From contig NC_086097.1 in the NCBI RefSeq assembly GCF_963921235.1, positions 94,180,001-94,244,000 on the forward strand: a DNA stretch of 64,000 nucleotides, given 5' to 3'. The stretch is from Mobula hypostoma (Eukaryota). Shown piece by piece: positions 4,050 to 63,020 of this stretch; the stretch's first letter is position 1, and each line of letters opens with the position of its first letter. The notes beneath the pieces were generated by a model that saw nothing but the letters and a program-made list of their open reading frames with translations, did not search any database and was not told the origin of the DNA. The translations under genes and the position numbers were made by a program.

Positions 4050-4363
4050 ATTCCCCCCCCCCGCTTTGTCTTTCTCCCTGGGCCTCCTGTCCCATGATCC
4101 TCTCATATCCCCTTTGCCAATCACCTGTCCAGCTCTTGGCTCCATCCCTCCCCCTGCTGTCTTCTCCTATCATTTTGGATCTCCCCCTCCCCCTCCCACT
4201 TCCAAATCTCTTACTAGCTCTTCCTTCAGTTAGTCCTGACAAAGGGTCTCGGCCTGAAATGTCGACTGTACCTCTTCCTAGAGATGCTGCTTGGCCTGCT
4301 GCGTTCACCAGCAACTTTGATGTGTATTGCTTGAATTTCCAGCATCTGCAGAATTCCTGTTGT
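4050..4363 (+). mobile_element. Penelope-like terminal repeat insertion with hammerhead motif
   Basis: Flanked by 10-bp direct repeat TTGGAGTATT (4040-4049, 4364-4373); pyrimidine-rich stretch then AGTCCTGACAAAGGGTCTCGGCCTGAAATGTCGACT. Confidence 0.75.
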
Positions 4364-4914
4364 TTGGAGTATTGTCAACAGTTTTGGGTCCCATTTCTCA
4401 GAAAGGATGTGTTGTCATTGGAGAGAGTCCAGAGGAGCTTTATGAGGATGATTCCGGGAATGAAGGGGTTAACATATGAGGAACATTTGGCAGCTTTGGG
4501 CCTGTACTCACTGGAATTTAGAAGAATGTGGGGGGGTGGCGGGGTTGTTTTGCAAAGACTGGATTAGGTGGATGTGGAGAGGATGTGTCCTATGGTGGGG
4601 TATCGGGAACTGGAGGTTCCAGCCTCAAAATTGAGGGGTGACCCTTTAGAACAGAGATAAAGAGGAATTCTTTTTAGCTGGATAGTGGTGAATCTGGAAT
4701 GCTCTGCCACAGACTGCGGTGGAGGCCAAGTCAGTGGGTATGTTTAAGACGGGAGTTGATAGTTTCTTGATCGGTCACATCAAAGGATATGGCGAGAAGG
4801 CAGGTATATGGGGCTGAGTGGGATCCATGGAATGGCGGAGCAGACTCGATGGGCTGAATGGCCTAATTGTGCTCCTATGTCTTACAGTCTTGTGGCCTTA
4901 TGGAGACTGCAAGG

Positions 4915-5440
4915 CATAGGAACAGAATTAGGCCGTTCAGCTCATCAAGTCCGCTCTGCCATTTGATCATGTCTAATTTATTTTCCCTCTCAACCCCATT
5001 CTTCTACCTTCTGCCTGTAACCTTTGATGCCATTACTAATCGAGAGCCTATCAACCTCTGCTTTATTTCTTCTCCCAAAGTGGAAGACCATACACTTCCA
5101 GACACTGTATTCCCTCTGTCACTTCTTCACCTATTCTCTTAATCTATCCAAGCACTTCTGCAGACTCCCTGTTTCCTTAGTGGTACCTACCTCTCCACCT
5201 TTCGCTGTATCATCCACAAACTTGGCCACAAAACCATCATTCTGTCATCCAGATCACTCACGTATAACATGAAAGGTAGGGGACCCAACACTGAACCCTG
5301 AGGAACATCACTAGTCACTGGCAGCTAATCAGAAAATGCCCCCTTTATTCCCACTCTTGGCCTTCTGCCGGTCAGCCAATCTCCTGCCTGTGATAGTTTT
5401 ATTCCTGTAGTACCATGGGCTCATACTTTGTGCAGCACCC
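4915..5440 (-). mobile_element. CR1 LINE fragments
   Basis: Reverse complement carries VPQGSVLGP and the CR1 3' UTR. Confidence 0.65.
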
Positions 5441-6885
5441 TAAACCACCCTATTGACTTGTGAAGCCATAAACACTTCACTTCCATTGTTCTAAATCACA
5501 GTCCTGAAAGGTCTTGAATCAGTGAATGTGCGTAGAATGTTTTCATGAGTGAGTGAATCTACAAACGTAGAAGCAGTGGTCACTGTTTGGAATCTTTGAA
5601 TATGTTTCCTGGAAAGCAAGGGAAGTGAAGGACCAGGCAGTAATATGGGATTGAGGTTACAATCAGATTAGCAAGCCCTTCTTAAATAGTAGAGCAGGTT
5701 CAAGGGGGAGCTTATGCCAACTATTTCATGTTACTGAGTGCCCTTGAGATTAATTCCAATATAGAAAATAAAACATAAAATTGAATAACACAGGAAGATG
5801 CCCTTTGGCCAATAATGTCTGTGCGAACCCTATTACCAATTTCACCTACTCCCATCTCCCTGCACATGGTCCATATCCTTCTTCTCCCTACTTGTTCATG
5901 TTCCTGTCCAAATATTGCCATCATTTCGGCTTCCACCGCCACCCCTAGCAGCACATTCCAGGCACCCTTCACTCTCTGTGTAAAATATTTACTTCATAAA
6001 TTACCACTTTGATTACACTTTGGACCTATAGGTTAGGATTTAACGACACCTAAGCCTCTTTGCTCCACAGTTCTTCGTTCCTCACTTCTAAAGAATTTTT
6101 GATTCACGTTGCTTGGATTTGTCACAGATGAACTCGAGAACCAAAATTAATTTTTTTCGGAGGCATCAAACTAGCATTTATTTCTTAAGGAAGTGTGCAT
6201 GTAAATCAGGCCCTAAAGATTATTTTGGTGCCTGGGTGAAAAGAACACGCACAGTGGAGTGGGTGTGTTAAACACACATATACATGCTTTCTGACTGCAA
6301 TTTTTATCCATCCTTTGTACCTCTTCCATTTTGTGAGATGTAAATCCAGCCCCTATCTCAAAACTGGTGACGTGATCCACCTCCGCTGACTGTGTCACAG
6401 CCTGTTCCACACTTTTGCTTCCCTCTGTGTGAAATACAAAAAGCAGAACCCATCTGTTCGCCTTGTTAATCATATTGTTAAAGAGCACAAGCTGGAATAG
6501 CCAATAGCTATTGTGTTAAAGCAGTGTGCTGCGGAATTTTAATCTGTTTGAGAGCCACTGACCCTGGTGTTGTTGGAGCCAATGTGATTGGTCAAGGTGC
6601 AGTAAGATTACACAACATTCAAGGCCATAATAACCCATTCACATATAGTGACCAGTTTCACTGAGGTTATTGTAACTTTGATTTATTGAAGAGTCTAACT
6701 ATAGAATGTAGTGAATTGGATTTTTAAAACTTGTTACTGAGTTAATCAGCTTGTGAAAACTACTCATAGTTCACAAGACAAAAATAATGCTTCCTTTCGC
6801 ACTTCCTCATTCATCCCAGTTAGGTACAATGCTAGGTTGCCTTCTTCAGCCCTGCACCCAGTAATTCTCTGTTCTCTGAATGCAG

Positions 6886-6981: not shown

Positions 6982-8351
6982 GTCAGTCAATCAGCAGGTC
7001 TGATAGTCATTTACCCTCCTGAGTGTACGTGGCTGTTCTTGCTTTACTGCTATCCATTGGTCGGTGGGAGAGGAGACCCAGGTCTCCGGCTGATGCTTCC
7101 TTTAATTTCTCCTTGAAGACATTGACTGACACAGAATATACAACAGGACAATGTGAAACGGTGTGGACGGTGCTAGTTGCTAAGCCAGGAAGTGGACTGA
7201 TCTGAGACCCACTGTAAAATCACTAGGAATTGCTGGTACACCATCATGGTGGTACTGAAGTCAGTCTTGACTATACATCCAGTGCCCACAGAAGCTAGTT
7301 GGTTAACAAGTAATTGGAAGAAAATATTAATCACATGAGCAGTCCCTCACTTGCAGTGGAGTATAACGTGAAACCAAAACAAAATATTCTAAAAATGCTC
7401 AGCAGGTCAGGAAGCGTCTGTGGAAGGAGAAACAGAGTATTTACATCAGACTGAAAACCCTTCTTTTGAAATGATAAACCAGTTTCTCTCTCCATTGGTG
7501 ATACTTGACTGCTGAGTGCTTCCATGACTTTTTGTTTTTCTTTCAGACTTCCATAATCTGTTTTTATTAAATCTAAATTTAATATTGTTCAGCTGCTTTC
7601 TTTGGTCTTTGCCTTCTTTGCATGATGCACTGTGCTCGGTAAATCTATGCTTTACCTTAATGCAGTTGGCACTGGGAAAGAGCAAAGCTTTGCAATAGAT
7701 GCTGGACTTTCTGAGTCAGACAGTTGTGTGTGCAGGTCCCACTGCAGAGGCTCGAGCAGATAATGTAGCACTGGTGGGATGGCACTGCAGACAAACAGCG
7801 TTGGCTAAATTGTCTCCTCTTTTGCCAGAGTAATCCTGCCTCACTACAGCACAGTCAGCTAGTGCTCTGCTGTTTTTGACGTACTGTTTGGGCTCTCCTG
7901 TAAATAAAATAAATATTTCTCATTCATAGTGACACAGCAATTTCCTCAGCCCTTGCCAATATTTATCCCAAGAACCTGAATATAATCTTACTGCTGCTTA
8001 TGGTCGAAACTGGCTACAAGTAACGTGACCACATTGCACTGGGTGCAGAATGCATTGACTTGGCCTGGAGCCACAAGAGGCACTCTAACCCCAGTGAATC
8101 TCCACTGCACCCTCTCCAGCACTATGGCAAACTGAAGTGCACACAGTCGCCCAGCTGTGGCCTAACCAACGTTTGGTACAATTGTAGCATAACTTCCTGC
8201 TCCTTGGGCCTGTAGGTGGTCCAGTACAGATCACTGTGCCAACTTCAGTGTGCCTAGACCCCCTGAAAAATCAGCTAAGGCTCCCATCGGTGGGAATATC
8301 GATGACACCATTCTCTGCTTTGCCAACAATTGGTTCCATTTTAATTTCCAG

Positions 8352-8432
8352 GAGAGTTTGGCTCGGTGAAGGAGGCGTACTTGAAGATGGAGGATGGGTC
8401 CACTCAAAAGTTGGCCGTGAAAATGCTGAAAA
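8352..8432 (+). CDS. TYRO3: TYRO3-like exon: Gly-loop and catalytic Lys
   Basis: ttccag|GA GAG...AAA A|gtgagt; 81 bp; (G)EFGSVKEAYLKMEDGSTQKLAVKMLK. Confidence 0.93.
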
Positions 8433-8639
8433 GTGAGTGGGGCGATGGGATCAGGCTTACGTGGGGGCGTGACCTCAGGGATTCTCCTCACAACGCGATT
8501 GCTCGAGCTGTATGGATGTGAGTGAGCTCCAACTGAGAGACCTCACCTCATGTCACTTTACTTCAAAGGTGAGATGGGAGGAGGCCATTTGGCCCCTTTG
8601 AGGCTGCTTTCTCTGTTTCACATCCCATTCGCCCTGCCA

Positions 8640-9205
8640 GTAGGATTTTCACCTCTAACTCTCTCTCCCAGGAATCTCAACTCCATTTCTCTCCTAGTAG
8701 GATTCTCACTTCCCGTTCCCCCTTTCAGCAGGATTCTCACCTTGGATTCTCTCTCCTAGGCGGATTCTCCCCTTTCATTCTCACTTCCAGCAGGATTCTC
8801 ACATCCCATTCTCCTCCAGCAGGATTCTCTCATCCCATTCCCCCTCCAGCAGGATTCTCACATCCCATTCTCCTCCAGCAGAATTCTCACATCCCATTCC
8901 CCCTCCAGCAGGATTCTCACATCCCATTCCCCTCCAGCAGGATTCTCACATCCCATTCCCCTTCCAGCAGGATTCTCACATCCCATTCCCCCTCCAGTAG
9001 GACTCTCACATCCCATTCCCCCTCCAGCAGGATTCTCACATCCCATTTCCTTCTAGTAGCATTCTCACATCCCATTCCCCTCTAGCAAAATTCTCACATC
9101 CCATTCCCTCTAGAGGAACTCACATGTCATTCCCTCTAGCAGGATTCTCACATCCCATTCCCCTCCAGCAGGATTGTCACATCACATTCCCCTCCAGCAG
9201 GATTC
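8640..9205. repeat. Minisatellite, about 30-bp unit CAGGATTCTCACATCCCATTCCCCCTCCAG
   Basis: Direct tandem copies, most regular at 8790-9205. Confidence 0.9.
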
Positions 9206-9399
9206 AGAGAGCTGAAATTTTTTGTCAAATGTCCCCACCATTTCCTCTCTTGCCTCCCAGAGCAGTTTAAAATATGTCTCCAGCTACAAAGAGATCCTTC
9301 ATAGTGAAGACAGTGGGGAATTATTCATTTGAGATCTCATCTAAGGCTTCTGGCTCCATGCACTGATTGTCCCTTTGATCCCTAATGGGTCTACTCTTT

Positions 9400-10340
9400 T
9401 ACTTATAAAACACTTTGAGATTTCCTTTAATCTTTCCCACTCATGTAAATTCACACCCCCTTTGCTATTTCTTATTAAATTCACCCCCTTTCACTTTGCA
9501 TCCTCCAGTACAGCCCCTCCTGTTCGCAGATCCCTACTACTGTCCTATGCAAGCTTCCCTTACCTTTAACCTGACATGAATATTCCTTGGCATTGTTGGC
9601 CTTTCCTTTCATCTTTAAGGTCCTGAACTTTCAGCATTTCACTTTTGAGTGCTTCTCGCCGATTGCTTGTAGACTTGCCTAGAAGTAACTGCCCCAGTTC
9701 ACTTTTGCTAGCTGCTGTATCATCATATTAAATTTGGTCTTTCCCCAATTTTGGACCTTAGTGTTCTGGGCCATCTTTGTCTTTCTCCATAATTGCCTTG
9801 AAACTTTGAGTTATGGTCACTATCTCCAAAATGTCTCCCACTGATTATGTCCAGTACTCCCCCATATCAGCTCAGGAAGCTCTACTGGACACACTTTAGG
9901 AACTGCCCACTCCATATAATCCCTGTTAATATGGGGAAGCTGAAATCCCCCACTACAATTATCCTATTATTTTTACATCATTCTGTGGTTTGCCTACATA
10001 TCTTTCTTTTTTCTTCGCCCTACTGCCACGATTCCTATGGTATATCCCCAACAAAATGATTGCCCACCAAGCTCCACCAATATGAAGAACTTCTTGCAGT
10101 AATGGACTCTTTAATATTGCAATTCCACCTCCTTGTTTACATCCCCTCCCCTCTGCTAAACCTGAAAGCTCCATTCCCTGTAATATTGAGTTAATAGTCA
10201 TGACCAAATTTCAAACATCTCTCCATGATAGAAGCAACATTATAGTCCCACGTGCTAATCTATGCTAATCTCAGATCCTCGGCCTTATTTGTCAGACTCC
10301 TTGTTTTAAAATAGATGCAGTCCAGCCTTGCATTCCTGTC
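9400..10340 (-). mobile_element. Old CR1 LINE fragment (endonuclease region)
   Basis: Minus-strand remnants GGGIAIL, VGDFSFP, GDSDHNS. Confidence 0.55.
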
Positions 10341-11301
10341 ATATTCTTATCATCTAGGTACCCACTGGATTGAGTTAGTTTTACCTCTAATTTTGTCTGT
10401 ATTCTAACTCTGTGTCCCTTCTCCTTTCAAACTAACTTAAACCTTCCCAAACACTGGCAAAACCCTCTTCCTGAACAAACATGTTGGACTGTTTGTGGTT
10501 CACGTGAAGGACCCATTGTGATTACAGCCTTTGAGATTATTCTTTTTTAATCTGTGATCTAGTTATCTGTGTTATCCTTTCAGAGGACGTGACCCGGGCC
10601 CAGCACATAAAGTGCAATTACGAAGAAAGCACAGCAGTGCCTCTACTTCCTTCAGACTGCAAATATTCAGCATGACGTCTAAAGCTTCTATATATGCCAA
10701 ACTTTTATAAATACGTGGTTGAGAATGTTATGTTTTGTAACTCCAAAACATTAGACTAATTAAAAGGAAAACAAGAGAGCTGGAAATGCAAATCCAACTT
10801 CAGTTTTTACTTGAATCGAGGCATTCACGTATGATGTGGTAGCATCATGACGCGTGCAATTCACTTATTTTTACATATAAACCATAATGAATTATTGAAA
10901 TGAACAAGAATACTTAATCAAACAATATGTTTACAAGATTACTCAAATATTACTGAAGTATTAAGTACACAACACTCCTCTCTGCTTTGCTATAAACTCC
11001 AACTCAATATAGAATGTATCTCAACTATATACACAGCATACTATATAATATAATTACTATATAGACATCCACAGCATAGTAAGTTTTAAATTGTCCCATT
11101 CAGACCTAAAGATTTAATTGCTGTGGAGGATTTCTTATTCCTGTGGGATATTCTTATTCCTTCCTGACAAGGAAAGGTCACTCTGCTTGGCAGGAGAGAC
11201 TTGGGACTATGAAACAATCAGAGGCAGTGGGGCCTCCTCCGTGGTGGTTGTAGGAGTTGACTCTGAGACTGCAGAAAGTGATCCTGACAGCTCAGGACAC
11301 C

Positions 11302-11841
11302 TTTCTTCTCCTTCCTTTTTCTTCTAGTTTGTTCATCTTGATCTTGAGAAGGTGCATTTAGTTCACTAGAACATTCTCTTACTAATCCTTCTCCTTTTAC
11401 AATCTGATCTCTCCTCTTGGTTTTCTCATGCACAACATCATCTGACGAATCCTCTGTTTTTGTATCTCCGTTGACTCCTTTCATTTTGGTCTTCCATTTA
11501 TCCAGCTGGGCTTTGGTCTTTGCATCTACTTTGACAAGCAGCTTTTTGTCTCTCACTTGAAGTTCATGCAATAACCTTAATGCACACAGAGTCGATTGTG
11601 GTTCTTTGTATTCACAAAAGCTGAATGCTTGCAACTTTCCTGAAGGTCCTTGACCTCTCTTCCAGTTTAAAACCAAGCCACATATTGCAAGTAGCTGCCT
11701 GATTAACATATTAAAAGCTTTCTCAGATATGTTGCCTACAAAACTTTTGCAGTTGGACCACTGCTTTCGTTGCTTTCCCGCTTCCTCTGAGTAGCATGGT
11801 CCTTCCGTGCCAACCAGAGGCACAGAGGTTGGCACCAACAC
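11302..11841 (-). pseudogene. RBM25: Processed, intronless RBM25 fragment (RRM domain) inside the LTR element
   Basis: FVGNISEKAFNMLIRQLLAICGLVLNWKRGQGPSGKLQAFSFCEYKEPQSTLCALRLLHELQVRDKKLLVKVDAKTKAQLDKWK...SSELNAPSQ...RKEKK matches the RBM25 RRM; ARKDH lies in another frame (compensating frameshifts). Confidence 0.88.
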
Positions 11842-13234
11842 CTGTTTGCCCTCTGTTGGGTAAATAGTTTATGCATACAGCATGGAGACAGTTGTGGTAT
11901 CACTCAGTACCTCTCTTCATTTGCTTTCAGATGGCTTCATTGCAGGGGATGTGGCATGCAATTGGTGAATGGATCTCCCAATCACTTTGTAGTTGTCTCA
12001 GCCAATCACAACCCATAATGCTGGTCCTTCTGTTTTTGCCACATACAAGCCCAAATTGGCTTGTTGATTGTTGTGTTTCACTGTTATGAATGTCATTCCC
12101 TCAGGAGTTAGGTTTTCTCCAGTTTGTTCTTCAGGCTTCAGGCTTCAGTTCACTATCTTTGAAATGCCAGTCAAACTCATTTTGTGGAATGACTGAAGCA
12201 GCCAAGCCAGTGTCCAATTCCATTTTAATCAATTTGCCATTCACTACTGCTGTAAGCCATATTGCTTGTCTAATGTTAGTTTCCACATTGTAAATCTCGA
12301 AGCTACCCAGCCCTGTGTCACTCTCATCGCTGTTAGAGTTTTCATCAACAGCATGCAGATTACTGCAACCTGACTTTTTAGATTTTTCTCTTCCCTGTGC
12401 AGTCCATTTAATTTTGTCTGCCTGACGTGCTCTTTGTATCCTAGTTTGTTACATTTTCTGCAAGTTTAGCCTTTAAACCTGCATTGGTCTGGTGTATATG
12501 AGCCTCAGCTACAACAATAACACAATTTGTTCTGTCAGGTAAGCCTCCATCTAGATGTATGAGTTTTGTTCACGCTGACTTTCATTCCTAACTGCAACTT
12601 AATTGCATCTCTGTCAGCTGTTTTTAAATGCTTTCTTGTAAGATTCCACAAACTAAATGATCTCTCAGTGGATCATTAAGCCCATCATTTAACTGATAAT
12701 GCTCAGACAACTTGTTCAATTCATCCATGTATGCTGAAATGGACTCCCCTTCTTTTTGATTCCACTTATGAAACCTAAAGCGTTCCGCAATCAGTAATAG
12801 TTTTGATTCTAAATGTTCCTGCATTACTTTCACAATACCAGCAAAGCTCATTTCAGCTGGTTTGGTTGGTTGGAGCTGTCAAACTCCTAAGCAAATTATA
12901 TGCATTTAAACCCAATGCACTCAGCAAAATTGGTACTTGGTTCTCATTAGCTATTTCATTTGCTTTAAAACACTACACAGTCCATTCAATATATAAAATC
13001 CAGTTATCTGTTGTGGAATCAAACACATCAATCTCTTGCTGCACTTCAACAGGTCTTGGATTCGTTTTAAAAATACCTTGTTACCGCTGTTAGGTTTTGT
13101 AACTCCAAAACATTAAACTAATTAAATAAAAGACAAGAGAGCGGAGAAAGCAAATCTAACTTCAGTTTTTACTTTAATGGAGGTGTGGTAGCATTGTGAC
13201 ATATGCAATTCACTTATTTTTACACATAATCATA

Positions 13235-14229
13235 GAATATAGAGCATAGAAACCTACAGCACATTACAGGCTCGTCAGCCCACAGTGTTGTGTCGACCAT
13301 ATAACCTACTCTAGAAACTGCCCAAAATTTCCCTACTGCCTAGCCCTCTATTTTTCTAAGCTCCACGTACCTATCTAAGTGTCTCATAAAAGACCCTACT
13401 GTATCCATCTTCAGCACCATCACCAGCAGTGCATTCCATGCACCCACCACTCTCCATGTGAAGAACTTACCCCTGACACCCCTCTGGACCTACTTGCAAG
13501 CACCTTGAAACTGTGCCCTCTCATGTCAGCCATTTCAGCCCTGGAAGAAAAGCCTCTGTCTATCCACACGATCAATGCCTCTCACTATCTTGTACACCTC
13601 TATCGGGTCACCTCTCATCTTCCATCGCTCCAAGGAGAAAAGGCCAAGTTCACTCAACCTATTTTCATAAGACACACTCTCCAATCCAGGTAACATCTTT
13701 GTAAATCTCCTCTGCACCCTCCCTATAGTTTCCACATCCTTCCTCCAGTGAGGTGACCAGAAGTGAACACAGTACTCCAAGTGGGGTCTGACCAAGGTCT
13801 TATATAGCTGTAACATTACCTCCCGGCACTTGAACTCAGTCCCACGGCTGATGAAGGCCAACACACCATACGCCCTCTAACAACATTGTCAATCTGCACA
13901 GCAGCTTTGAGTGTGTCCTATGGACACGAACCCCAAGATCTCTCTGATCCTCCACACTGACAAGAGTCTTACCAATAATATTATATTCTGCCTTCAAATT
14001 TGACCTTCCAAAATGAACCACTTCACGCTTATCTGGGTTGAACTCCGTCAGCCACTTCTCAGCCCAGTTTTGCTGTAACCTTTGACCCTCCAGACTATCC
14101 ACAACGCTCTCAACCTTTGTGTCATCAGCAAACTTACTAACCCACCCTTCTACTTCCTCATCCAGGTCATCTATAAGAATCACAAAGGGGAGGGGTCCTA
14201 GGATAGATCTCTGTGGAACACCACTGGTC
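13235..14229 (-). mobile_element. CR1 LINE 3' portion inserted in the 5' LTR of the Gypsy element
   Basis: ORFs 13535-13864 and 13836-14183 (KFADDTK, LVRPHLEYC); CATA repeated at both junctions. Confidence 0.9.
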
Positions 14230-15199
14230 CATAATGAATCATTTAAACAAACAAGAATGCTTAATCAAACAATATATTTACAATGTTACTTAAATATTAA
14301 ACACACAACAGAGAGTATATTGACTGGTTGCATCACAGCCTGGTATGGAAACACCAATGCCATTGACTGGAAAATACTACAAAAAGTAGTGGATATGGCC
14401 CAGTCCATCATGAGTAAAGCCCCTCCTCCCTCTCCCCCACATTTACACATAGCTTTGTTGCAGGAAAGAAGAAACCCCAACACAGGACATGCTCTCTTGT
14501 CGCTGCTGCCATCAGGAAGAAGGTACAAGAGCCTCAAAACTCACACCACCAGGTTCAGGAAAGGTTACTGCCCCCAACCATCAGACTCTTGAACCAAAGT
14601 GGATAACTTCACCCAGCTTCACCTGCAACCTATGGACTCAATTTCAAGGACTCTTCATTTCTTATTCTTTATATTCATTGTTTATTTATTATTATTGTTT
14701 CTTTTTTTTCTTACTGTATTTGTACAGTTTGCTGTCCTTTGCACACTGGTTGTTCGCCCTGTTGGGTGCGGTCTTTCATTAATTTTATTATGGTTATTGG
14801 ATTTATTGTCATCAGGAAGAAGGTACAGGAGTCCACAAGAAACTCAGGGTTTAATATGGTGACATATATGTACTTTGATAATAAATTTCCTTTGAATTTT
14901 AGCTCCCTACATTCACATGACAGCACCTGGTCCCTCATTTCACCTAATACGAACCACCCCTCTGGCTGTTTGTGTAACCCTACTGAGAATGCTCTGCACC
15001 TCATTCTGTGACATCCAGTGAGACAACCCACCACCTGCGACTCACATTGACGGCGAGTGAATCATCGGTTTAGTCAGCTCACTACTGAGCTGCTTATCAC
15101 TATTGCCTTTGGACTTGTGCTCCCTTTTGCTACACACCTGAGCCACTCACCATATCATGATCTTGACTTTGTCTCCACACCTCAGAAGAACATTGACCT

Positions 15200-16720
15200 G
15201 CACCATTTTCAAATTAAGTCAAGCTTATTGTTTTGGCACATGTACACTGAAGTACAAGGACAATGGAAAATCTCGCTTTAAGCAACATGCAGATAGAGAC
15301 TGCAGGACAAAGTTGTACATAAGTTACACAGGACAGCGACACAAAAATTGTAAAATAAAACATTAGTGCAAAAAATGCACAATTAGAGAGAAGTGTAGGG
15401 TAGTGCAAAAGCTGGTCCATAGTGCTCTGAAGTTTCCAAAATGGGAAATCAGCTTTAGACTGAGATGTCCTCTGAGGCCTCCCTGACTACCTCCCTCCCC
15501 CTCTCTCTTACCCTCGCTGGTGGTCACTAATTCCTCCACTGACTGCATTTCCTTCAGCAGTGTGATTCAGATCGTGCAGGCTGGTTTGAAAAATGAGTGG
15601 TTGAAAGGAAGTAGCTGTTCTTGGTGTGGAAAATCAGTTTTCTGTACCTCCTGTCTAATGGTAGATCTCAGAAGATGGCATGGTCTGGATGATTGGGATT
15701 TTTGATGATGGTTATTGATGAGAAGATGGCATGGTCTGGATGGTTGCGATTTTTGATGATGGTTATTGATGAGAAGATGGCATGGTCTGGATGATTGGGA
15801 TTTTTGATGATGGTTATTGATGAGAAGATGGCATGGTCTGGATGATTGGGATTTTTGATGATGGTTATTGATGAGAAGATGGCATGGTCTGGATGGTTGC
15901 GATTTTTGATGATGGTTATTGATGAGAAGATGGCATGGTCTGGATGATTGGGATTTTTGATGATGGTTATTGATGAGAAGATGGCATGGTCTGGATGATT
16001 GGGATTTTTGATGATGGTTATTGATGAGAAGATGGCATGGTCTGGATGATTGGGATTTTTGATGATGGTTATTGATGAGAAGATGGCATGGTCTGGATGG
16101 TTGCGATTTTTGATGATGGTTATTGATGAGAAGATGGCATGGTCTGGATGATTGGGATTTTTGATGATGGTTATTGATGAGAAGATGGCATGGTCTGGAT
16201 GATTGGGATTTTTGATGATGGTTATTGATGAGAAGATGGCATGGTCTGGATGGTTGCAATTTTTGATGATGAATATTTCCTCCTTGAGGCAACATCTTAT
16301 GTAGGTTCTACTGATGTTTGGGAGTCATCATGCCCATGATGTATCGGACTGAGTCCACAATTCTCTGTGGCTTCCTTTGTTCCTGCATGTTCCTATTGCC
16401 ATACCAAGCTAAGATGCAACCAGCCACAGTACTTCCAGCAACAAATCTGTGGAGGTTTTCTAGAGCATTTGCTAGACATGCCAAACCTCCTGAATTTCCC
16501 AAGAAAATAAAGATGCTTGTGTACCTTCCTGTGATTGCATCTATGTGCCGTGCAAAGTACAAGTCATCCAATATGTTAAAGAAAGGAACTAAAAGCTCTG
16601 ACCCTTTCCACTGCATTCCTCAGTGTTGACTGGTGCATATTCACTCTCCTTCTCTCATTTAAGTCAACAATCACCTCTTTAGTTTTACTGACAACAAGGA
16701 TATGGAGGGATGGTAAACCA
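15200..16720 (-). mobile_element. Rex1/Babar-like LINE 3' end containing a 51-bp tandem array
   Basis: Minus-strand GCILAWYGN, VSKTKEVIVD and 3' UTR similar to other copies in the window. Confidence 0.65.
15669..16272. repeat. Tandem array, 12 copies of a 51-bp unit
   Basis: Unit GAGAAGATGGCATGGTCTGGATGATTGGGATTTTTGATGATGGTTATTGAT with two variants. Confidence 0.95.
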
Positions 16721-16829
16721 AGGTGGCAGAGGACATTGAATGGGAGCCAACCATAACCTAGCTGAAGGGTGGAGCAGGCTGGAAAAGATGGATGATTCAT
16801 ATCTACTCCTTTCTCCCTCTCCCATGCAG

Positions 16830-16922
16830 CTGAAATCTGTGTACCTGGAGACAACGAGGAGTTCTTGCGAGAGGCAGCCTGCATGAAGGAATTCGACCAC
16901 CCGAACATCATTAAGATTATTG
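16830..16922 (+). CDS. TYRO3: TYRO3-like exon: helix alphaC
   Basis: pyrimidine tract+cag|CT GAA...ATT G|gtgagt; 93 bp; (T)EICVPGDNEEFLREAACMKEFDHPNIIKII(G). Confidence 0.93.
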
Positions 16923-17405
16923 GTGAGTAAGCCAGGGGTAAGGGTGCAGAGGGAAAATGGTAAAGGTGAGCAGACAGAAAACAGTGCCATCTGGTATTTA
17001 GGTGCTAAACCCACTTAAAGGGGCATGCTGTACCACCGACTCTGGGTGGACAGGGCTATGTCACATGACATTCGGCAATCATGTTGCTCTCACGTCCCCC
17101 TCATTGATTTTCTGAGATGTCTACCTCCTGATGCCCACGCTGGGTTGAAGTGAGTCATTCAAACATGGTCTATCAAAAGAGCTTTTCCATTCTACAAAAC
17201 CAAGTGATCAAACAAGGCCTTTTGTCCTGGGTGTGTGCTCATAGCAGGGGCCCTATTCCTGGAGCACTCCCATGTCAGTCCAGGAGAGTTTGCATGGGCA
17301 GGGAAATCCAAGGGCTTTATACTGCCTTAGGCTGGATTTCAGTGCTCAGCAGCCCCGTAGTGAGCAGATACCCCAGATGACATGAAAAATGAATTTTGGA
17401 CAACA

Positions 17406-18155
17406 ACACTCAGTGGCCACTTTATTAGGTGCACCTGTACACCCACTTGTTAATGCAAATATCGAATCAGCCAATCAAGTGGCAGCAACTCAATGCATAA
17501 AAACACGCAGACATGGTCTAGAGTTCTAGTTGTTGTTCAAACCAAACATCAGAATGGGGAAGAAATGTGATCTAAGTGACTTTAAGTATGGAATGATTGT
17601 TGGTGCCAGACAGGGTGGTTTGCGTATCTCAGAATCTGCTGACCTGGGATTTGCATGCACAACAGTCTCTAAAGTTTACAGAGAATGGTGCGCAAAACAA
17701 AAAAAAATCCTGTGAGAGGGAATTCTGTGGGCAAAAACACCTAGTTAATGAGAAGAGAGTGGCCCAACTGGTTCATGCTGACAGGAAGGTGACAGTAACT
17801 CAAACAACCATGCGTTACAACAGTGGTGTGCAGACGAGTATCTCTGAACATATACACGTTGAACCTTGAAGTGGACGGGCTACAGCATCGGAAGACCACA
17901 AACAAACTGCTATGTTTTGTAACTCCAGAAATGAATTGGAACACGCAAGGCTGAGAAATCACGTCTGCTTCACTTCACTTTAGTGAGGCACTCACTTACG
18001 ACGCGGTGGAGTAGTGACGTATGCCATTCACATACTTCATACATATAACCCGTAATGCCAAGAAAGAATGTTTAATCAAATAATATATTTACAATATCAC
18101 TGAAATATTAAATACACTACACATACACTCAGTGGCCACTTTATTGGGTAGAGGA
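17406..18155 (+). mobile_element. Tc1/mariner-derived non-autonomous relic
   Basis: ACACTCAGTGGCCACTTTATT at both ends; paired-HTH remnant KKCDLSDFKYGMIVGARQGGLRISE...TTVSKVYREW. Confidence 0.7.
17908..18121 (-). mobile_element. Solo LTR related to the 10726 LTR family
   Basis: TG(C)TATGTTTTGTAACTCC...AAATACACTACA; 5-bp TSD CAAAC/CATAC. Confidence 0.8.
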
Positions 18156-18279
18156 GTTATATTGTGTTATTTCTTTTGGGTATTTAAATTAACGTGCACC
18201 TTAAGAATCTGTCCTAGCTTGTGTATTTTTAGGTGATTGCAGCTCTACTCTGTCTGCATGTAGTTTGTTCAGGCGAGGT

Positions 18280-18780
18280 GGAGATATGGAGTTGTACAGC
18301 ATGGGAAAAGGCCATTCTGCCCACTGAGCCTATGCTGGACCTTAACACCCGACTGTACGAATCCCAGTTTACTCTCCACACGTTCTCATCGACTCTCCCA
18401 CGTTCTCCCGCTCGCCTTCTCACCAGGGAAAATTAACTGAGGGTGGTTAACCTGCCAACCCACGTAACTTTGGTGTGTGGGTGGAAACCAGAGCACCGGC
18501 TTCTCCCACTCACCTTCTCACAAGGGAAAAATAGTAGGGGGGGGGGCGGTAATGAATCTACAACCCACATATTCTAGTGTGTGTGAGGAAATCAGAGCAC
18601 CGAATTCTCCCACTTGCCTTCTCACAAGGGGGTAATTAATCTTCCAACCCGCGTATCTTTGGTGTGTGGGTGGAAACGGGAGCCCCTGGTAGGAAGCCAG
18701 CAGGGTCACCGGGAGAAGATGCGGGTTCCACACGGGCAGCACCTGAACCTGGGCCACTGTGGCTGCACCACACTGCGGGG
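18280..18780 (-). mobile_element. V-SINE-like element with about three tandem partial duplications
   Basis: Repeated CTTTGGTGTGTGGGTGGAAACC(A)GAGCACC blocks; tRNA-like head near 18740-18780. Confidence 0.5.
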
Positions 18781-19557
18781 GTAGGATGTAAGGGGCAAGT
18801 GGTTGCCCCTGGCAGTTGTGGCTCAGGGGGCAGAACATCTGAGTTAGAAATAGTGACTGCAGGCCTCATCCTGCGGCAGAAAATTCTAGAGCAGTGCTTC
18901 CAGTCCCAATCAGAGAAGAGCAGTGATATCTTCTTCCTGTTGTCTATCTTTCAAAAGCCCCGTATTGGCTGTGATCTGAAAGAGGATTTGAGGGGTAATT
19001 ACTTTTTTTTTACAGACAGGGTGTTTGACAGCTGGAAAGTGCTGCCTGAGGAGGTGGTGGTATTGGATACGATCATTTGGAGAGACATTTCAGTGGGCAA
19101 GGCTTAAAAGGATATGGTCCTAATGGAGGCAAATGGACAAAATGTTGGCCTGGGTGTGTCTGGCTACAGGGGCTTTTTCAATGCTGTACGACTTTCAGGC
19201 TCTAAGACTGTAGGAAGCACATGGAGGTAATCTGGTGCAGAGCAATCCCGCCCATGCGGATAAGGCATTAATCATTGTACACTCGTTAAAAATAGCTTCA
19301 GAAATCAAAGGCATAAAGACTCAAAGACTTTAAAGTAGGCAATTGTCAATCAGATAGACTTAAATTGAGGGACACGTGCACTATTGATGTTAAAGTTAAA
19401 ATTTTAAAAATAAAAGTGCGACCGAGGACTTCCGGGTCATCAAGGGAATGGCGGCGTAAGGAAAAGGTCTCTCGGCCAAAAAGAAGGTAAACTGCCCCAA
19501 AATGGAATTTAGACGAATACTTAATATTGTATAACTATATTAATAAAAGGGGCAAGG

Positions 19558-20534
19558 ATGATGTCTAAGAACAAGATTAAAAAGTCCGCTCCGAAGGCTG
19601 ATAAACGTAAAGAGACGCAGCAAGGCGACGGGCCTAGCTCCCCCACGGCAAGCCAGGACGGAGAGAATGAGGGGGAATCGGTGACTCTGTCTTTGATTCT
19701 CAGAGAGATTCACGAGTTCCGACAAGATAACAGCAAACAGCTGGAAGATATTAAAGGAGAAATAGTAAAAACTAACTCGCGGATAGATGAAGCCGAAGCG
19801 AGGACTGTAGGAATTGAAGAGAAGCTACAAAATACAGAGGAAGTGATAGCAGAAATACTAAAGCTACAAGAGCAACTCCAGTGGAAACTAATAGATCAAG
19901 AAGGCCGCTCAAGAAGGGAAAATGTGAGGATCTACGGAGTTCCTGAAGGTAAACCCGGATTGATGATTCCCTTCATGGAGAAGCTGCTTAGAGAGAACCT
20001 TGATATACTGGCCGCAAAAGACCTACAGATAGAAAGGGCTCACCGTGCATTGGCACCGCAGCCTCCGGCAGGCGTCCAGCCCAGATCGATTCTGATCAGA
20101 TTTCTCAGTTACAGACGAAGGAAGAGGTGCTTAAGTGGGCATGGCAAAAGAAAGGTTTCATGTGGATCAACTGTAAAATCAGTTTAGGCCATGATTACGC
20201 ACCGGGGATTCTTGCCAGAGGGAAGGAATATGTGGAAACACGGAGGGTCCTGAAGGAAAACAACATCAGATTTCAGACCCCGTATCCAGCTCGGCTGAGA
20301 GGCTTTTATGACGAAGGGACAAAAACTTACGCTACAGCGGAGGAGGCAACGTTGGACCTGGCGGACCGGGGACTACCTATTAAAGTTATCACCCAACCGG
20401 AGTCGCTACTGGAGAGGATTCAGCAGAAGTTGTGGCAGCCAGTGTGGCGAGGACGCTCCACACGACCCAGAGTGTCAAACTACAAGGAAAAGCTGCAAAT
20501 ATTCAGACGCGAATATACAGAGAATACAGATTAA
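19558..20534 (+). pseudogene. L1 ORF1p (coiled-coil/RRM), one frameshift near 20115
   Basis: QEGRSRRENVRIYGVPE, IERAHRAL, PRSILIRF, YPARL. Confidence 0.88.
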
Positions 20535-20896
20535 TTAAGAGAAATGACTGAAAAGAGCAATTTGGACTTAAAGGTAAAATGAAAGACGGTATCTGAAAAT
20601 AAACTAGATGGAATAACTTGAATGATAACAATATGGTTGAGACATAAATAGGAGAAAATTCTCTATGATTATTCAAACTGCTGAGGGCCCTCTAACACAG
20701 GGTGAAGATAGAGGTTATCCCTCTGAACTGAAGCGGGTCGGTGCTCAGGCCTTACTGTGGGAAGTCGGGAAAAATTTTCAAATGTTATACGTTCAAAAAT
20801 GTCTAGGGTATGGTTATATGTTTTGGTTTACTGTTGAGAAGGGATTGCTTACTGTTGGTTTAGAAAAGGAGAGTTTTTTTTTTCTACTAGAGAAAA

Positions 20897-23800: not shown

Positions 23801-24684
23801 TAAAAGATTTGAATTATGGATAAAGAAAGGTCTTACAACCTACCTCTCATTTATACCTAAAAGAGTATTACAAGGTTTCCAAATCCTGCAGGACAAACAT
23901 GGCCTAGAACACAATGACATTTTTAGGTACCTTCAAGTACGAAATTATGTTAACCAGAGTTGTAGATATACAGACTTATCAACAGTAGAATTAGAATTTT
24001 TCAAGATTCTGAATTCGGCTTGCAGTTCAATACCTAGTAAATCAGTTTTGTCGATTATATAATGCACTCTCCCATGCTAAAATTGTAAACACATTGTATA
24101 TTAAAGAGAAGTGGGAGAAAGAAGCAGGGTTGGTACTTTCAGAGGAGGCTTGGGGGAAAATCTGCAGCTTTCAATGGTCCTGGACTAATTCTTTGACTTG
24201 GAGAGAACATTGTTGGAAAAACATTATAAGATACTTCAAGACCCCATATCAGGAAAAATATAAAGATACAAACGTGACGTGTTGGAGAAAGTGCGGCTCC
24301 AAGGAGGCAAATCATTTCCATATTTTCTGGGATTGCCCTAAATTAAGTCTATATTGGGAAGGTATTCATAGAACATTAGTTAAGGTACTTAGGACCCAGA
24401 TACCTCTAAACTTTGAGACGCTCTATTTGGGGCATGTATTGTTTCTTGAACAGAAGAAAGATATAAAGTTGCTGTAGGCCCTTTTAGCGGCAAGTAAGAA
24501 ATCAATCACTAGAAAGTGACTAAATCCAATACCACCTACATTAGAAGATTGGCACGAAATTATCTTGGAAATATTTAAAATGGAAAAGTTGACTTACTCC
24601 CTGAGAATTCAAAAAGAAAAATTTTATCAAATCTGGAATAAATGGATTGAATATATAACCCCAATGCGAGCAGACTTTAGATGA
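20897..24684 (+). pseudogene. L1 ORF2p (APE endonuclease, RT, Cys-rich C-terminus) with several stops and frameshifts
   Basis: ISYNVNG, FLQETH, GGDFN, YSRIDY, SDHSP; LDAEKAFD, QGCPISP, LFADD; CWRKC..HIFWDC. Confidence 0.9.
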
Positions 24685-31520: not shown

Positions 31521-31682
<162 letters not shown>

Positions 31683-40770: not shown

Positions 40771-40817
40771 TTATTATTATGATTATTATTATTATTATTA
40801 TTATTACTACTACTATT
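40771..40817. repeat. (ATT)n/(ACT)n microsatellite
   Basis: Direct reading. Confidence 0.9.
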
Positions 40818-42819: not shown

Positions 42820-43310
42820 GTTTGCTGAAAAACAGGTAGACTAGGTGGTGAAGGAAGCGTCTGGCGCACTGGTCTTCAACAGTCAAGGCACCAACTATAG
42901 GAACTGGAACATAAGACGCAGTTGTACAAAGCATTTGTGAGAACACACCGTGTATAGTTAATAGTTTTAGTCGCACTGTTATAGGAAAGACGTCATTAGA
43001 CTGGAGAGAGTGCAGAGAAGATTTACAAGGATCCTGCTCGGACTCAAAGGCCAGAGTTACAAGGAGTGATTGGACAGGCTGGACACGGCAGGAAAGCACA
43101 GGGAATGGGACTAAAATCTCAAGGGCTTCGGTTTAAGGTGAGAGGGGAAGGAATTGAAAGGGGCCTGAGGGGCAACTTCATTCAGAGAGTGGAGGGTACA
43201 AGGAATGAACTGGCAGAGAAAGTGGTTGAGGCTGGTACCATAACAACAGGTAAGTAAATAGGGGGGAGGGATTAAGAGGGAAATGGGACTCCTTTGGAGG
43301 GCACCGTGGA
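42820..43310 (+). mobile_element. Degraded CR1 3' fragment
   Basis: LERVQRRFTRIL, RGNFIQRVEGTRNELAEKVVEAG. Confidence 0.6.
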
Positions 43311-43425
43311 TGAATGGGTTTCCATTCTGAAAGGGTATTCTCATGCAACCGTGGAGATACTTCATGGGGTTGTGAAAGGAGGCATCTCTGATTAATGAGG
43401 ACCTTTTACCTTTCTGTTGAGACAG

Positions 43426-43798
43426 GTACCACCTGATGTGCAGCTGCTGGCATGTTGAACCCAAGCACAGGCCTACTTTTGAGTCTTTGAAAGAGTCACT
43501 GGAAAGCATCTTCCAGGGCCTTTCCCCAGTCGTAGAGCAGCACCAGCATTTCTACATGAACCTACCGAATGGGGCAGGCGCTTCCGAGTGCAATCCTGAT
43601 TGCAGTATCGCCTGCTGGCAAGTGGACCAACCAAGTTCGGACAATATGGAAGCCCCAGCTGTTTCAGACACTGCCGACTACCGTTACGTCACAGCTCCAA
43701 TGAGTTTGGTGGAAGACACAGAGGACAATACAGCAAGTGAGGCAGAGGACTATTTACAGGATGGACAAGTGGAAGGGGAAGTCATTATCTGTCTTTGA
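43426..43798 (+). CDS. TYRO3: TYRO3-like terminal coding exon: end of kinase and C-terminal tail
   Basis: gacag|G TAC...TGA; YHLMCSCWHVEPKHRPTFESLKESLE...FYMNL...DYRYV...EVIICL*; phase fits the preceding exon. Confidence 0.92.
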
Positions 43799-43823
43799 CA
43801 GCTGGAAATCTGGGCAGTGGAAT

Positions 43824-58009: not shown

Positions 58010-59330
58010 ATTTTATATATAGGAGCAGAATTAGGCCATTTGGCCCATCAAGAAATGCTGATCCATTTTCCCTCTCAACCCCAATCTCCTGCCTTCTCCC
58101 CATAACCCTTCATACCCTAATTAATCATGAATCTGCCCTAAATATACCCAGTGACTGTGCCTCAACAGCCAGCTGTGGAAATGAGTTCCACAAATTCACC
58201 ACCCTCTGGCTAAAGAAATTCCTCATCATTTTCCATAGAACCATAGAAACTACAGCACAGAAACAGGCCCTTTGGCCCTTCTTGGCTGTGCCGAACCATT
58301 TTCTGCCTAGTCCCACTGACCTGCACACGGACCATATCCCTCCATACACCTCCCATTCTAAATGGACGTCCCTCTATTCTGAGGTTGTGCCCTCTGATCC
58401 TAGACTCTCCCACCATGGGAAACATCCTCTCCACATCCACTCTACTGTGGCCTCTCAACATTCGATAGGTTTCAATGAGATTCCCCACCCTCACCACCAG
58501 TCTTCTAAATTCCAGTGAGTACAGGCAGAGCCATCAAACACTCTTCATGTGACAAATCTTCCATTCCCAGAATCATTCTCATGAACCTCCTCTGAGCCTT
58601 CTCCAATGTCAGTACATCCATTCTAAGATAAGGGCCGTAAACTATTCACAATACTCCAAGTGAGGCTTCACCAGTGCTTTATAAAGCCTCAGTGTTACAT
58701 CCTTGCAACACACACAAAATGCTGGAGGAACTCAGCAGGCCAGGCAGGATCTACGGAAAAAGTACTGTCGATGTCTCGGGCCGAGACTGTGTTGCCTGGA
58801 TTTCCAGCATCTGCAGATTTTCTCTTGTTTGAGATAGCATTACATCCTTGCTTTTATAGTTTAGTCCTCTCAAAATGAATGCTAACTTCACATTTGTCTT
58901 CCTCACCACTGGCTCAACCTTTAGGAAGTCCCGCACAAGGACTCCCAAGTCCCCCTGCACCTCAGATTTTTGAAATTTCTCTTCATTTATTCAGTTGTTC
59001 AGCTATTTGCTTGTCGAGTTTTTTTTTCTTTCTCTTGCAGTTCAAATGGCAGTCTTTTAATTTTATTTTTATTCCTTTTTTTCTTTAATTGGGTTCTTTC
59101 AAGTTTCTTGCTTTGTGGCTACCTGTGAGAAAGGAAATCTCAAGGTTGTATAAGTTATACATTCTTTGATAATAAATGTACTAAATCTTGAATTTATCAA
59201 ATAATCTATGCTTTTATTCTTTCTACCATAGTGCATGACCATACACTTACTGACATTGTATTCCATCTGCCATTTCTTTACCCATTCCCCTAATCTGTCT
59301 TAAGTCCTCTGCAGCCCCCTGCTTTCTCGA
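58010..59330 (-). mobile_element. CR1 LINE fragment with nested small insertions
   Basis: RNFFSQRVVNLWNS, QGDLGVLV on the minus strand. Confidence 0.75.
58707..58835. mobile_element. Rearranged Penelope terminal-repeat insertion
   Basis: TSD AGTGTTACATCCTTGC / AGCATTACATCCTTGC (58691-58706, 58836-58851). Confidence 0.7.
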
Positions 59331-59959: not shown

Positions 59960-60190
59960 GGGCAAATCTCCCACTGCTGCCCATAAGGAGTTTATGCATT
60001 CTCCCTGAGACTGCGTGGATTTCGTCCGGATGCTCTGGTTTCCCCCCACATTCCAAGGACGTACTCATTGATAAATTAATCGGTTATTGTAAATTTTCTC
60101 ATGTTTGGGCAAGGATTAATTGGGGGGGTGATTGCTAGACGGCATGGCTGTAAGGGTTTATTCCATGCTGTAGATAGAGAGATAGTTAGA
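59960..60190 (+). mobile_element. V-SINE-like fragment
   Basis: GGAGTTTATGCATTCTCCCTGAGACTGCGTGGATTTCGTCCGGATGCTCTGGTTTCC core. Confidence 0.55.
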
Positions 60191-61994
60191 TAGAGTCATC
60201 ATGGATATGGTGGGTTCGACCACACATTGACTCTTCAAGTGGTGGTGAATCTCAGTGAAGAATTTAGATTATTGGCTGCACAAATCTAGTTTTTTTTTTA
60301 AGTAACTTGTGACCCTCTCAAAGGCCCTGGCTCTGTCACCCATACCTTGTGCATTATAATCTTCTCCGTATTCCCTTCCCACACATCAGTGCTCAACATT
60401 TGGCATTAGAATCTTTCCTCCTCCCATTTCCCCCTTCTCCCCCACCGTTAAACAACTATGAGTCACCAGACATACATATTCCAAATGCTACCTTTGATCC
60501 CTGAAATTGGTCTAAACTTCATGACATTTCTGACCCTAGCAGAACAATTGCTGATGATTAACCATTGTTGAGCCAGTTTATCAGCATTCTCAGCACAAAG
60601 CTGGTTCAGTCCTGCTGCTATTCTAGCTCAACTGTTTCTCATTTTATAAATAACACAACCATCACTAACTTCTGTCTGCGAAACACACAGCTACCAGTCA
60701 CCATGGCTGGAATTCCAGCAATCCCAGCTCTCGGCATGGTGTGCTTTCAATTACTGTACCAATGACTGCTCATTAAATGGACTGAATGCCTTGTTAACTC
60801 TTGAAATATAATTATAGAAAATGCCAGCAATTGTTTCAAAATCTTGCTCTGCCAATGTTACCCATAGGAAACGCCTTGTAGAGGCGGTCATTGTGAGCTC
60901 ACTGTTAGAATTAGTTCAAAGTTCAAAGTGACCGGAGTGGATGAGATGAGAAAAGCTGGAGGCATCCCAGCTGAACAGCAGGCTGGAATGTACATGGGCC
61001 CAGGCAAGGGTAATAGTGAAAAGGAGCTTCAGGGTTTGGAGTGTGGAGTGGAGTGGGGGGGGGGGGGTTGTCATTGTGAAGGTATTCCTCAGTTTATGAA
61101 TGTTCAGTCCTACACATGGGGCATGTGTTTTCAGTTTAGGAATGCACTTTTTAACTCCAGTAAAGGATATCCTACCCTTCCCCCACCATCCATACAAATA
61201 CTCTGTGCCAAAATACGCACAATGCACTTCAATAAAGTCTTCCCAACTTGGGAACTTTTGGAAAATGAAATGTTTTCCAAGAACACATCCTTTTCCTAAG
61301 TGAGGAATGACTATAAAGCTTTAGGACTTTGAGACACCCCAAAGCATCTTACAATCAGTGATGTAGCTTTGAAGTCTTGGCACAATCCTCACGATGAAAA
61401 ATAACGGCAGTTTGCCTGTTCTCATCACATCTGAAGACTCTACAAAACTACTTATGAAGCATTTTACCCAGACTTTTTGCTCTATGAAATTATGTGTAAT
61501 GAAACCTCCAGGAATGCATCACTTTTGTAAATTGAGGAATGATGGTAAGTAAGTAGCAGTAATTTGGACTTTAAGTATAGGGTCCATGATTATGAAGTTT
61601 GCAGATTATACCAAAAATGACCCCGAAAAAATAATGAGGGAGTTACTTCTGGGCTGCAGGAATGTATCCAAGGACTGGTTTCGAGGGGGAAATTGGAATC
61701 CTGCATTTGGAGAAGGAAATGAAGACAAGGGAATGCTCAATAAGTGAAGTGGAGAGAGGGTGCTCAGTATTAACAAACTCGGTGGAACTCAGCTGGACTG
61801 CATGCCTGAGGGTAGGAGGATGGGCCACTGTGTTGATCTAGAAGGCACTGGCATTGGCATGAGATACAAGAGAAGAGTAGAAAGCACTAGTTAGGTTACA
61901 TTAGAGGACTGTGCATGATTCTGATCAAAGTCAAGTAATCCTGTGATTTATAGCATAACAGCCACTTTACTCATGAGAATATTACTTACTTTTC

Positions 61995-63020
61995 CCTTAC
62001 CTGCATCTCCTCCACTTCCCAGACATCCACCCTCATCCCATCTTTCCGCCACCTTAACAGGGATAGAGTTCCTCTTGTTCTTACCTACCACCCCATGAGC
62101 CTCTACATCCAACACTTCATTCTATCATTCTCTGCGACGTGCCATCTTCAATGGGATCCTACCATCAAACTTTTTTTTACCCTATCCCCCCCCCCCTCTA
62201 CTTTCCACAGGGATTGGTCTCTCCATGATTCCCTGTGCATTTGTCCCACCCTACTGAATTCCCTCCTGGCTCTTATCCCTGGAAGTGGAGGAAGTGCTAC
62301 ACCTGCCCGTTCACCTCCTCCCTCACCTCCATTCGGGGTCCCAAACAGTCCTTCCAGGTGGGGTCTATCTGTAGCCAGCGCTCCCGGTTTGGCCTCCTCT
62401 ACATCGGTGAGACCCACATAGATGCGGGGGGGAGGCCGCTTTGTTAAGCACCTTCACAGTCCACAACAAGCAGGGTTTCCCGTTAGCCGACTGCTTTAAT
62501 TCCAATTCCCATTCTGACATGTGGATCCATAGCTGCCTCTACTGCCATGATGAGCCACTCTCAGGCTGGACGAGGAACACCTCATATTCCACTTGGGTAA
62601 TCTTGAACCTGAAGGCATGGTCATCGATTTGTCTAACTTCCAGAAATTTTTCTCCACTTCTCTTTTTTCTATTTTTCATTCTGGCTCCCCTCTCACCCCC
62701 TCTCTCTCCTCACCTGCCTATCCCCTCCCTCTGGTGCTCCTCCTTCTTCACCTGCTCCCTTTGTCAACTCTCCTCTCCTATAAGATTCCCTCTTCTTCAG
62801 ATCTTCACATTTCCCCACCTATCACCTCCCAATTTCTCACTTCATCCCCCTTCCCCTACCCACCTACCTTCCCCCTCACCTGGTTTTACCTATCACCCTC
62901 TAACTTGTATCCTTCCCCTCCCTCCCTCCTTCTTATTCTCGTTTCTTCTTCCTTCCTTTTCTGTCCTGATGATGGTTCTCGGCCCAAAAGGTTGACTGTA
63001 GATTCCTTTTCATAGATGCT
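61995..63020 (+). mobile_element. Penelope-like element 3' part: GIY-YIG endonuclease remnant, pyrimidine-rich UTR and terminal repeat
   Basis: DRVPLVLTYHP, KCYTCP, LLYIGET, FNSNSHS, EEHLIFHLGNLEPEGMVIDLSNF, then the hammerhead motif at 62961-62998. Confidence 0.82.

Follow-up and report, generated by a model that had tools for sequence, protein, structure and literature searches.

Here we report a minimal type I hammerhead ribozyme motif dispersed over a 64-kb stretch of the genome of the ray Mobula hypostoma (contig NC_086097.1, positions 94,180,001 to 94,244,000 of the forward strand; hereafter the window), where several copies lie in introns of a receptor kinase gene best matched by TYRO3. 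The motif consists of stem I, the CUGANGA core, an extra A, a 4-bp stem II, GAAA, a loop-less ACGU and the triplet GUC, and it is the minimal hammerhead ribozyme (min-HHR) of Cervera and De la Pena 2014 (PMC4209133; here and below, published work is cited from the accessible parts of each paper). In our judgement it very likely resides in the 3' pseudo-long terminal repeat (pLTR) of a very abundant Penelope-like element of the Neptune/Nematis type, the window copies being 5'-truncated, mutated in the core and likely inert (probability about 0.9). The minimal type I topology, as proposed in an initial annotation of the window, is supported by a complete core as the family majority in four of four sequencing runs and by stem covariation across related elements.

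Motif copies in the window

Using motif copies, alone and with their flanks, as BLASTN queries, we recovered all seven stretches that the initial annotation had listed, on the same positions and strands; the minus-strand copy at 3704 extends to 3741 once all 38 nt are counted. Five additional partial copies were found by BLASTN against the window, and matches between motif copies within it have E values from 1e-6 to 1e-56. The six full and six partial copies are:

3704..3741, minus strand: full min-HHR copy; G12>A, stem I mismatch; ACGU and GUC retained
4231..4268, plus strand: full min-HHR copy; G8>A, C15.2>U, U at 11.1
7398..7435, minus strand: additional copy (BLASTN), an old diverged tail fragment
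30964..31049, plus strand: additional partial diverged copy (BLASTN), 3' half of the motif and tail
34740..34777, plus strand: full min-HHR copy; G12>A, G16.2>A; sense in a TYRO3 intron, heading an insertion of ~105 nt (~34732-34837)
37499..37608, minus strand: inverted 5'-truncated arm, 3' half of the motif and long tail, adjoining the direct copy at 37609
37609..37645, plus strand: full min-HHR copy without the first base of the 38-base motif; A6>C, G12>A, C15.2>U, C17>U
39626..39652, minus strand: additional copy, an inverted partial motif adjoining the direct copy at 39656
39656..39693, plus strand: full min-HHR copy; U4>A, stem III reading AUAU, triplet AUC; in sense orientation within a TYRO3 intron, ~180 nt ahead of an exon
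41129..41178, minus strand: additional partial diverged copy (BLASTN)
58705..58825, minus strand: additional partial copy, 3' half of the motif and short tail (58705-58787), paired with an inverted long-tail piece at 58788-58825 (plus strand); 12-bp target site duplication (TSD)
62961..62998, plus strand: min-HHR copy behind an open reading frame (ORF) remnant, the most diverged full copy; G12>A, C15.2>G, C17>U, extra A>U

A 25-nt pattern allowing up to 3 mismatches matched the window twice and 100 shuffles not at all. With a min-HHR descriptor allowing one core mismatch we obtained 3 matches in the window (mean of 0.25 in 12 shuffles); with two core mismatches there were 4 (mean of 1.5 in shuffles), a level that is weak by itself, and perfect descriptor matches numbered 0. 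None of the six full copies has an intact catalytic strand, and the descriptor scan agrees with the earlier statement that no full copy keeps an intact core (6 of 6 broken).

The carrier element

The last full copy had been described as directly following a remnant of a GIY-YIG ORF. The remnant is present and supports a Penelope origin of the motif; it lies ~320 nt upstream, however, and the direct adjacency does not hold. The order of features at this end of the window is:

61993..62643, plus strand: broken 3' end of a Penelope ORF, detected by homology, comprising the reverse transcriptase (RT) thumb and linker, a CX4CxxC zinc-finger-like linker and the GIY-YIG endonuclease
62644..62960, plus strand: pyrimidine-rich 3' untranslated region of the element

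Homology to the ORF stops at ~62643, and ~320 nt of pyrimidine-rich sequence precede the motif at 62961. The remnant carries several frameshifts and stops as well as a short deletion in its GIY part. Its best match is a protein (P0002) to which four frameshifted pieces align from the RT thumb to GIY-YIG (tblastn E 2e-30), the Pfam GIY-YIG match of this protein being itself weak (E 0.002, under the curated cut-off). An index-free search with the linker piece yielded 14 relatives among 1.84 billion representatives, and a second search yielded 334, led by proteins of Hypanus sabinus and Mobula hypostoma and followed by those of sharks and then of corals and other invertebrates, an order that makes a myliobatiform ray the likely host. 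Many of the 334 relatives contain RVT_1, and GIY-YIG is also carried; the RT core falls outside the truncated window copy, and the relatives that cover the remnant have RVT_1. The CX4CxxC linker is conserved in the protein alignment (A2), with the window copy retaining CxxC and having its first C altered. According to Craig et al. 2021 (PMC8557442), the clades Neptune and Nematis are marked by a CX2-5CxxC linker between the RT and the endonuclease. The motif and the ORF are also found together outside the window: a zebra-shark protein (P0024), predicted through a stop codon, ends in the translation of the same motif, and at one related locus (L015) the motif lies on both sides of the ORF.

Other searches returned nothing that bears on the carrier. 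A word-based protein search with the first remnant frame matched 0 of 1276 candidates, and Pfam models run on 137 frames of the window left the GIY-YIG remnant undetected. Viral contigs gave no relatives of the protein alignment, exact motif patterns had no matches in viral or metagenome contigs, and no RNA datasets matching 61950-63100 were listed.

Conservation, covariation and folding of the motif

We collected 80 loci of related elements from metagenome contigs, 48 of which were eligible in having the end of the ORF and at least 400 nt behind it. CUGANGA and GAAA were both found within 700 nt behind the ORF on the sense strand of 32 of these 48 loci and on the antisense strand of 0 of 48. 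In all 32 core-bearing loci stem II is paired at 3 of 3 pairs, pairing not having been a search criterion, compared with 9.5% in shuffles; in 11 of the 32 the sequence continues with CGU as in the ray motif. In an alignment of 18 motifs (6 from the window and 12 from outside), changes on both sides occur in 9 of 11 pairs, and 87% of cells are paired, vs 68% in shuffles; the 12 outside rows were chosen by a descriptor requiring pairing, and the 48-locus count is the fairer test. Across related elements the stems covary. A covariance model built from the 12 non-window motifs only ranked five of the window copies 1-5 (E 5e-5 to 0.04), while the sixth full copy ranked 7th of 23 matches (E 0.5).

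Several observations weigh against this reading, the choice of outside rows among them. Within the ray family the stems change on one side only, the double-sided changes coming from distant elements, and the core was not seen in 16 of the 48 eligible loci. No full-length element lies within the window, and the assignment of the carrier to a putative Neptune/Nematis-type Penelope-like element is set by the linker motif, not by a tree. No part of the window and none of 6 related loci reached the gathering score of an Rfam hammerhead model, so these models seem not to cover loop-less motifs; a separate Rfam scan of 34600-39900 returned two weak unrelated matches only. Finally, nearest-neighbour energies of the majority motif favour an inactive hairpin, in which core and cleavage triplet pair with each other, over the hammerhead fold (-12.9 vs -8.9 kcal/mol), and the active dimer, at -16.7 kcal/mol, is placed far above the two-strand minimum of -34.1 kcal/mol. 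For the form with U at 11.1, the corresponding values are -11.0 for the hairpin, -7.0 for the hammerhead, -11.5 for the active dimer and -30.3 kcal/mol for the dimer minimum. These predicted energies, which leave out tertiary contacts, are consistent with a weak, assisted ribozyme.

The metagenome loci also include a second related Penelope group (L039-L077), whose hammerheads lack the extra A and have a longer stem III region. Both this type and the loop-less ACGU type lie 100-580 nt behind the ORF.

Family majority and the G10.1-U11.1 form

To reconstruct the family beyond the window, contigs of four public runs (X1, X5, X9 and X22; 8,057 to 95,545 contigs per run) were aligned to positions 4030-4390 at 80% similarity and weighted by depth, which gives a rough measure. 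G8 is the majority base in all four runs (84, 84, 87 and 97% of depth), as is C15.2 (81, 81, 80 and 94%). The two corresponding lesions of the 4231 copy thus revert in the majority, so that the family majority core is complete: CUGANGA, GAAA and UH are the majority in 4 of 4 runs. Eight motif places differ in at least 8% of depth, every one of them a CpG position. Variable places other than CpG number 0 of 28 in the motif and 23 of 257 outside it, a difference that is suggestive only (Fisher p 0.08). Summed contig depth runs into millions over the motif and is ~5 at the flank, which is not a copy number.

One site departs from the canonical motif. U at 11.1 (window 4255-4256) makes up 74% of depth in X1, 71% in X5, 86% in X22 and 30% in X9; G10.1-C11.1 is found in 16 of the 18 aligned rows and at 70% in X9, and G10.1-U11.1 accounts for 71-86% in the other three runs. 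Despite the frequent U11.1, G12>A stays below 8% of depth in the runs. Among window copies, site 11.1/12 reads UG in 4, CA in 4 and CG in 1, the pattern that plain CpG decay would give. A young G10.1-U11.1 wobble subfamily is nevertheless likely, because decay and reference bias together raise other motif sites to only 13-20%, and this subfamily seems to be dominant in two ray runs.

Two side observations concern CpG sites in the same data. The U11.1 wobble would also remove the CpG adjoining G12. The X22 run, which we guess to be an RNA run, is less CpG-decayed than the DNA run X1 (G8 97% vs 84%, C15.2 94% vs 81%); this could reflect preferential transcription of young copies, the run type being a guess and a few loci possibly dominating.

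Insertion anatomy and decay of the core

Two insertions near the start of the window illustrate the structure of the short copies:

3601..3773, minus strand: truncated Penelope-tail insertion in a CR1-like long interspersed nuclear element (LINE) remnant, its 5' end carrying a short tail piece in inverted orientation; 5-bp TSD
4050..4363, plus strand: truncated insertion in a CR1-like remnant, with the pyrimidine-rich 3' region, the min-HHR and a long tail; 10-bp TSD at 4040-4049/4364-4373

TSDs were identified at five insertions (5 bp at 3601, 10 at 4050, 8 at 34732, ~16 at 37499 and 12 at 58706), and inverted truncated arms at four sites (3601, 37499, 39626 and 58788). The inverted unit 37499-37700, which has the ~16-bp TSD, is predicted to fold as a single long hairpin. 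Copies end at one of two alternative 3' ends, with a short or a long tail, ~30-40 nt apart; their 5' ends vary, and sequence 5' of the motif runs on into the 3' region of the ORF. No head-to-tail tandem array with complete hammerheads occurs in the window. Because of the TSDs, the inverted truncated arms and the two 3' ends, we read the short copies as ordinary Penelope insertions.

Lesions were scored against the family majority in 9 copies, leaving aside 3 more diverged partial copies. CpG transitions account for 29 of the 44 lesions overall and for 15 of the 19 in the core, which sustains the earlier claim that they form the majority; 4 of the 29 are C11.1>U and may be a subfamily state rather than decay. 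Changed bases amount to 31 of 86 at CpG and 13 of 208 elsewhere. The window copies are likely inert through core mutation.

Close pairs of opposite copies were observed as well. Between 3200 and 4900, two copies of the same subfamily (92% alike) lie in opposite orientation 280 nt apart in one CR1-like LINE remnant, each with its own TSD. Their 151-nt arms (3606-3756/4216-4366), 91% complementary and 459 nt apart, are predicted to form double-stranded RNA, likely within TYRO3 introns. The inverted pair at 37499-37705 has a predicted hairpin of -126 kcal/mol and, like the 3606/4216 arms, is a possible editing substrate.

The TYRO3 context

8351..43800, plus strand: seven exons, covering kinase domain and C terminus, of a TAM-family receptor kinase whose best match is TYRO3

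The match to TYRO3 (E 9e-19) is closely followed by that to AXL (E 2e-17). Full copies at 34740, 37609 and 39656, spaced 2.9 and 2.0 kb apart, lie in sense orientation between mapped exons, and the 4231 copy is probably also sense intronic, in line with the original statement that several copies are sense within TYRO3 introns. No upstream TYRO3 exon was found in 1-8350, so that the 3704 and 4231 copies are presumed rather than shown to be intronic. With partial copies included, the likely intronic region holds 5 sense and 5 antisense copies, too few for a test of strand bias.

The initial annotation had added that an active copy here would cut the pre-mRNA, for which we find no support. Each of the four sense copies is short of at least one catalytic base, the triplets reading AUC at 34740, GUU at 37609, AUC at 39656 and GUC at 4231, and the predicted occupancy of stem I in its sequence context is 0-5%. 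Cutting of TYRO3 pre-mRNA by the window copies is therefore unlikely, as judged from their sequence.

Other repeats in the window

LINE ORF2 remnants occupy 20993-24474 and 26807-28559 on the plus strand (Pfam endonuclease E 2e-9, RT E 2e-39 and 3e-10), and a further RT remnant lies at 50804-51325 on the minus strand. The segments 46931-47386, 48567-48866 and 51895-52164 contain a DUF7041 frame with a weak integrase-core match nearby, likely a long terminal repeat retrotransposon remnant, and a hAT transposase dimerisation remnant. Minisatellites were found at 15517-16428 (unit of ~51 nt), 34180-34455 (31-32), 8786-9222 (29-30), 30584-30936 (18-19) and 55033-55277 (35). A weak tRNA-like match at 35425-35495 on the minus strand (21 bits, below the gathering score) is possibly the head of a tRNA-derived short interspersed nuclear element (SINE).

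Discussion

A 2014 paper (PMC4209133) had already described this class of motif together with its extra nucleotide and its palindromic 15.2-16.2 pair, and tabulates a Neptune example from A. digitifera. The ray motif shares with those min-HHRs the type I topology, the missing loop 3, the palindromic 15.2-16.2, the extra nucleotide between A9 and 10.1, a short stem I and the occurrence mostly as solo copies from truncated elements. It differs in its 4-bp stem II, compared with 7-8 bp in the Schistosoma families, in the common G10.1-U11.1 form, and in a copy load that appears far above the 4,000-9,000 of coelacanth and Xenopus. The elements of Craig et al. 2021 (PMC8557442) likewise have an RT followed by a CX2-5CxxC linker and by GIY-YIG at the C terminus, with 5'-truncated copies, an inverted 5' partner and an optional tail of 30-40 bp, whereas the window holds only the last ~650 nt of the ORF. 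A pLTR hammerhead is also present in the Poseidon element of Anolis carolinensis (Frangieh et al. 2024, PMC11167929), where two reverse-transcription start sites account for short and long tails like those seen here; Poseidon belongs to another clade, its ORF begins within stem II, and its protein-assisted cleavage was measured, while our case is built on sequence. The portions of the main text and supplement of PMC4209133 that were covered mention no cartilaginous fish, and we found no paper on a min-HHR Penelope family in rays or sharks, which subscription papers, Repbase/Dfam or supplements may name.

Published work suggests how such an element would operate. Metazoan Penelope min-HHRs show no cleavage as monomers and weak cleavage as dimers or trimers (PMC4209133), and the Anolis Poseidon motif requires the element's protein for cleavage and is dispensable for in vitro insertion (PMC11167929). 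Two motifs of one intact tandem element would base-pair via their palindromic ACGU, and the resulting double hammerhead would cut after GUC, weakly and probably only when aided by the element's protein; cleavage would process the element's own transcript. Reverse transcription would begin in the tail and halt early, scattering motif-plus-tail scraps in large numbers. Once inserted, these scraps would be free of selection, CpG deamination would remove G8, G12, C15.2, G16.2 and C17, and the scattered solo tails, being without a partner, would decay.

The most serious alternative, which we regard as possible though clearly the less probable, is that the hammerhead-derived motif now acts chiefly as a structural hairpin, or as a site for protein binding, close to where reverse transcription starts, and that even young copies would not need catalysis. 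Folding predictions put the inactive long hairpin in the ground state, G10.1-U11.1 holds 74%, 71% and 86% of depth (X1, X5 and X22) even though G10.1-C11.1 is described as highly conserved (PMC4209133), core mutants of Anolis Poseidon had no effect on in vitro insertion and no RNA-seq reads end at the cut site (PMC11167929), and Naiad elements spread without the motif (PMC8557442). Against it, the unpaired catalytic letters are retained across distant related elements while the stems change, and a plain hairpin would not need them; moreover, the Anolis motif cleaves with the protein, and C3/G8 swaps act as in a hammerhead (PMC11167929). It is improbable that the short copies form an independent non-autonomous family (SINE-like or a non-LTR retrozyme) instead of being pieces of an autonomous element. 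The ORF is absent from 11 of the 12 window copies, and hammerhead retrozymes of pLTR origin, also type I, have been reported from one chondrichthyan genome (Li et al. 2026, bioRxiv 10.64898/2026.07.22.740005). Those retrozymes, however, are tandem arrays with complete motifs in consecutive units, whereas the window copies are scattered, stand alone or inverted, and carry mutations; their 5' ends differ, no head-to-tail array lies in the window, the inverted arms and the two 3' ends are those of ordinary Penelope insertions, and the sequence 5' of the motif continues into the 3' region of the ORF.

Effects on host transcripts are less probable still. We hold it quite improbable that young intact copies, including a G10.1-U11.1 subfamily that in one ray lineage has overtaken the canonical form, cut host pre-mRNAs so often that they are purged from the sense strand of introns, with the five CpG sites acting as a post-insertion off switch. 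Hardly credible, finally, is that the intronic sense copies cut or regulate TYRO3 pre-mRNA, whether as cis dimers or together, in trans, with intact copies on other transcripts. Three full sense copies do lie between mapped exons, and domesticated intronic hammerheads are known in amniotes; yet in all three a catalytic base is lost and stem III is broken or altered, the 37609 copy sits inside the inverted-repeat hairpin of -126 kcal/mol, the lesions track neutral CpG decay, and the even count of sense and antisense copies tests nothing.

What is new here is the addition of a ray family to the min-HHR class described in 2014; the window copies are likely dead, and the family matters little as found. 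For the question of what Penelope hammerheads do in vivo, the abundance of the ray family gives statistical power for tests of strand bias and decay beyond the reach of these 64 kb.

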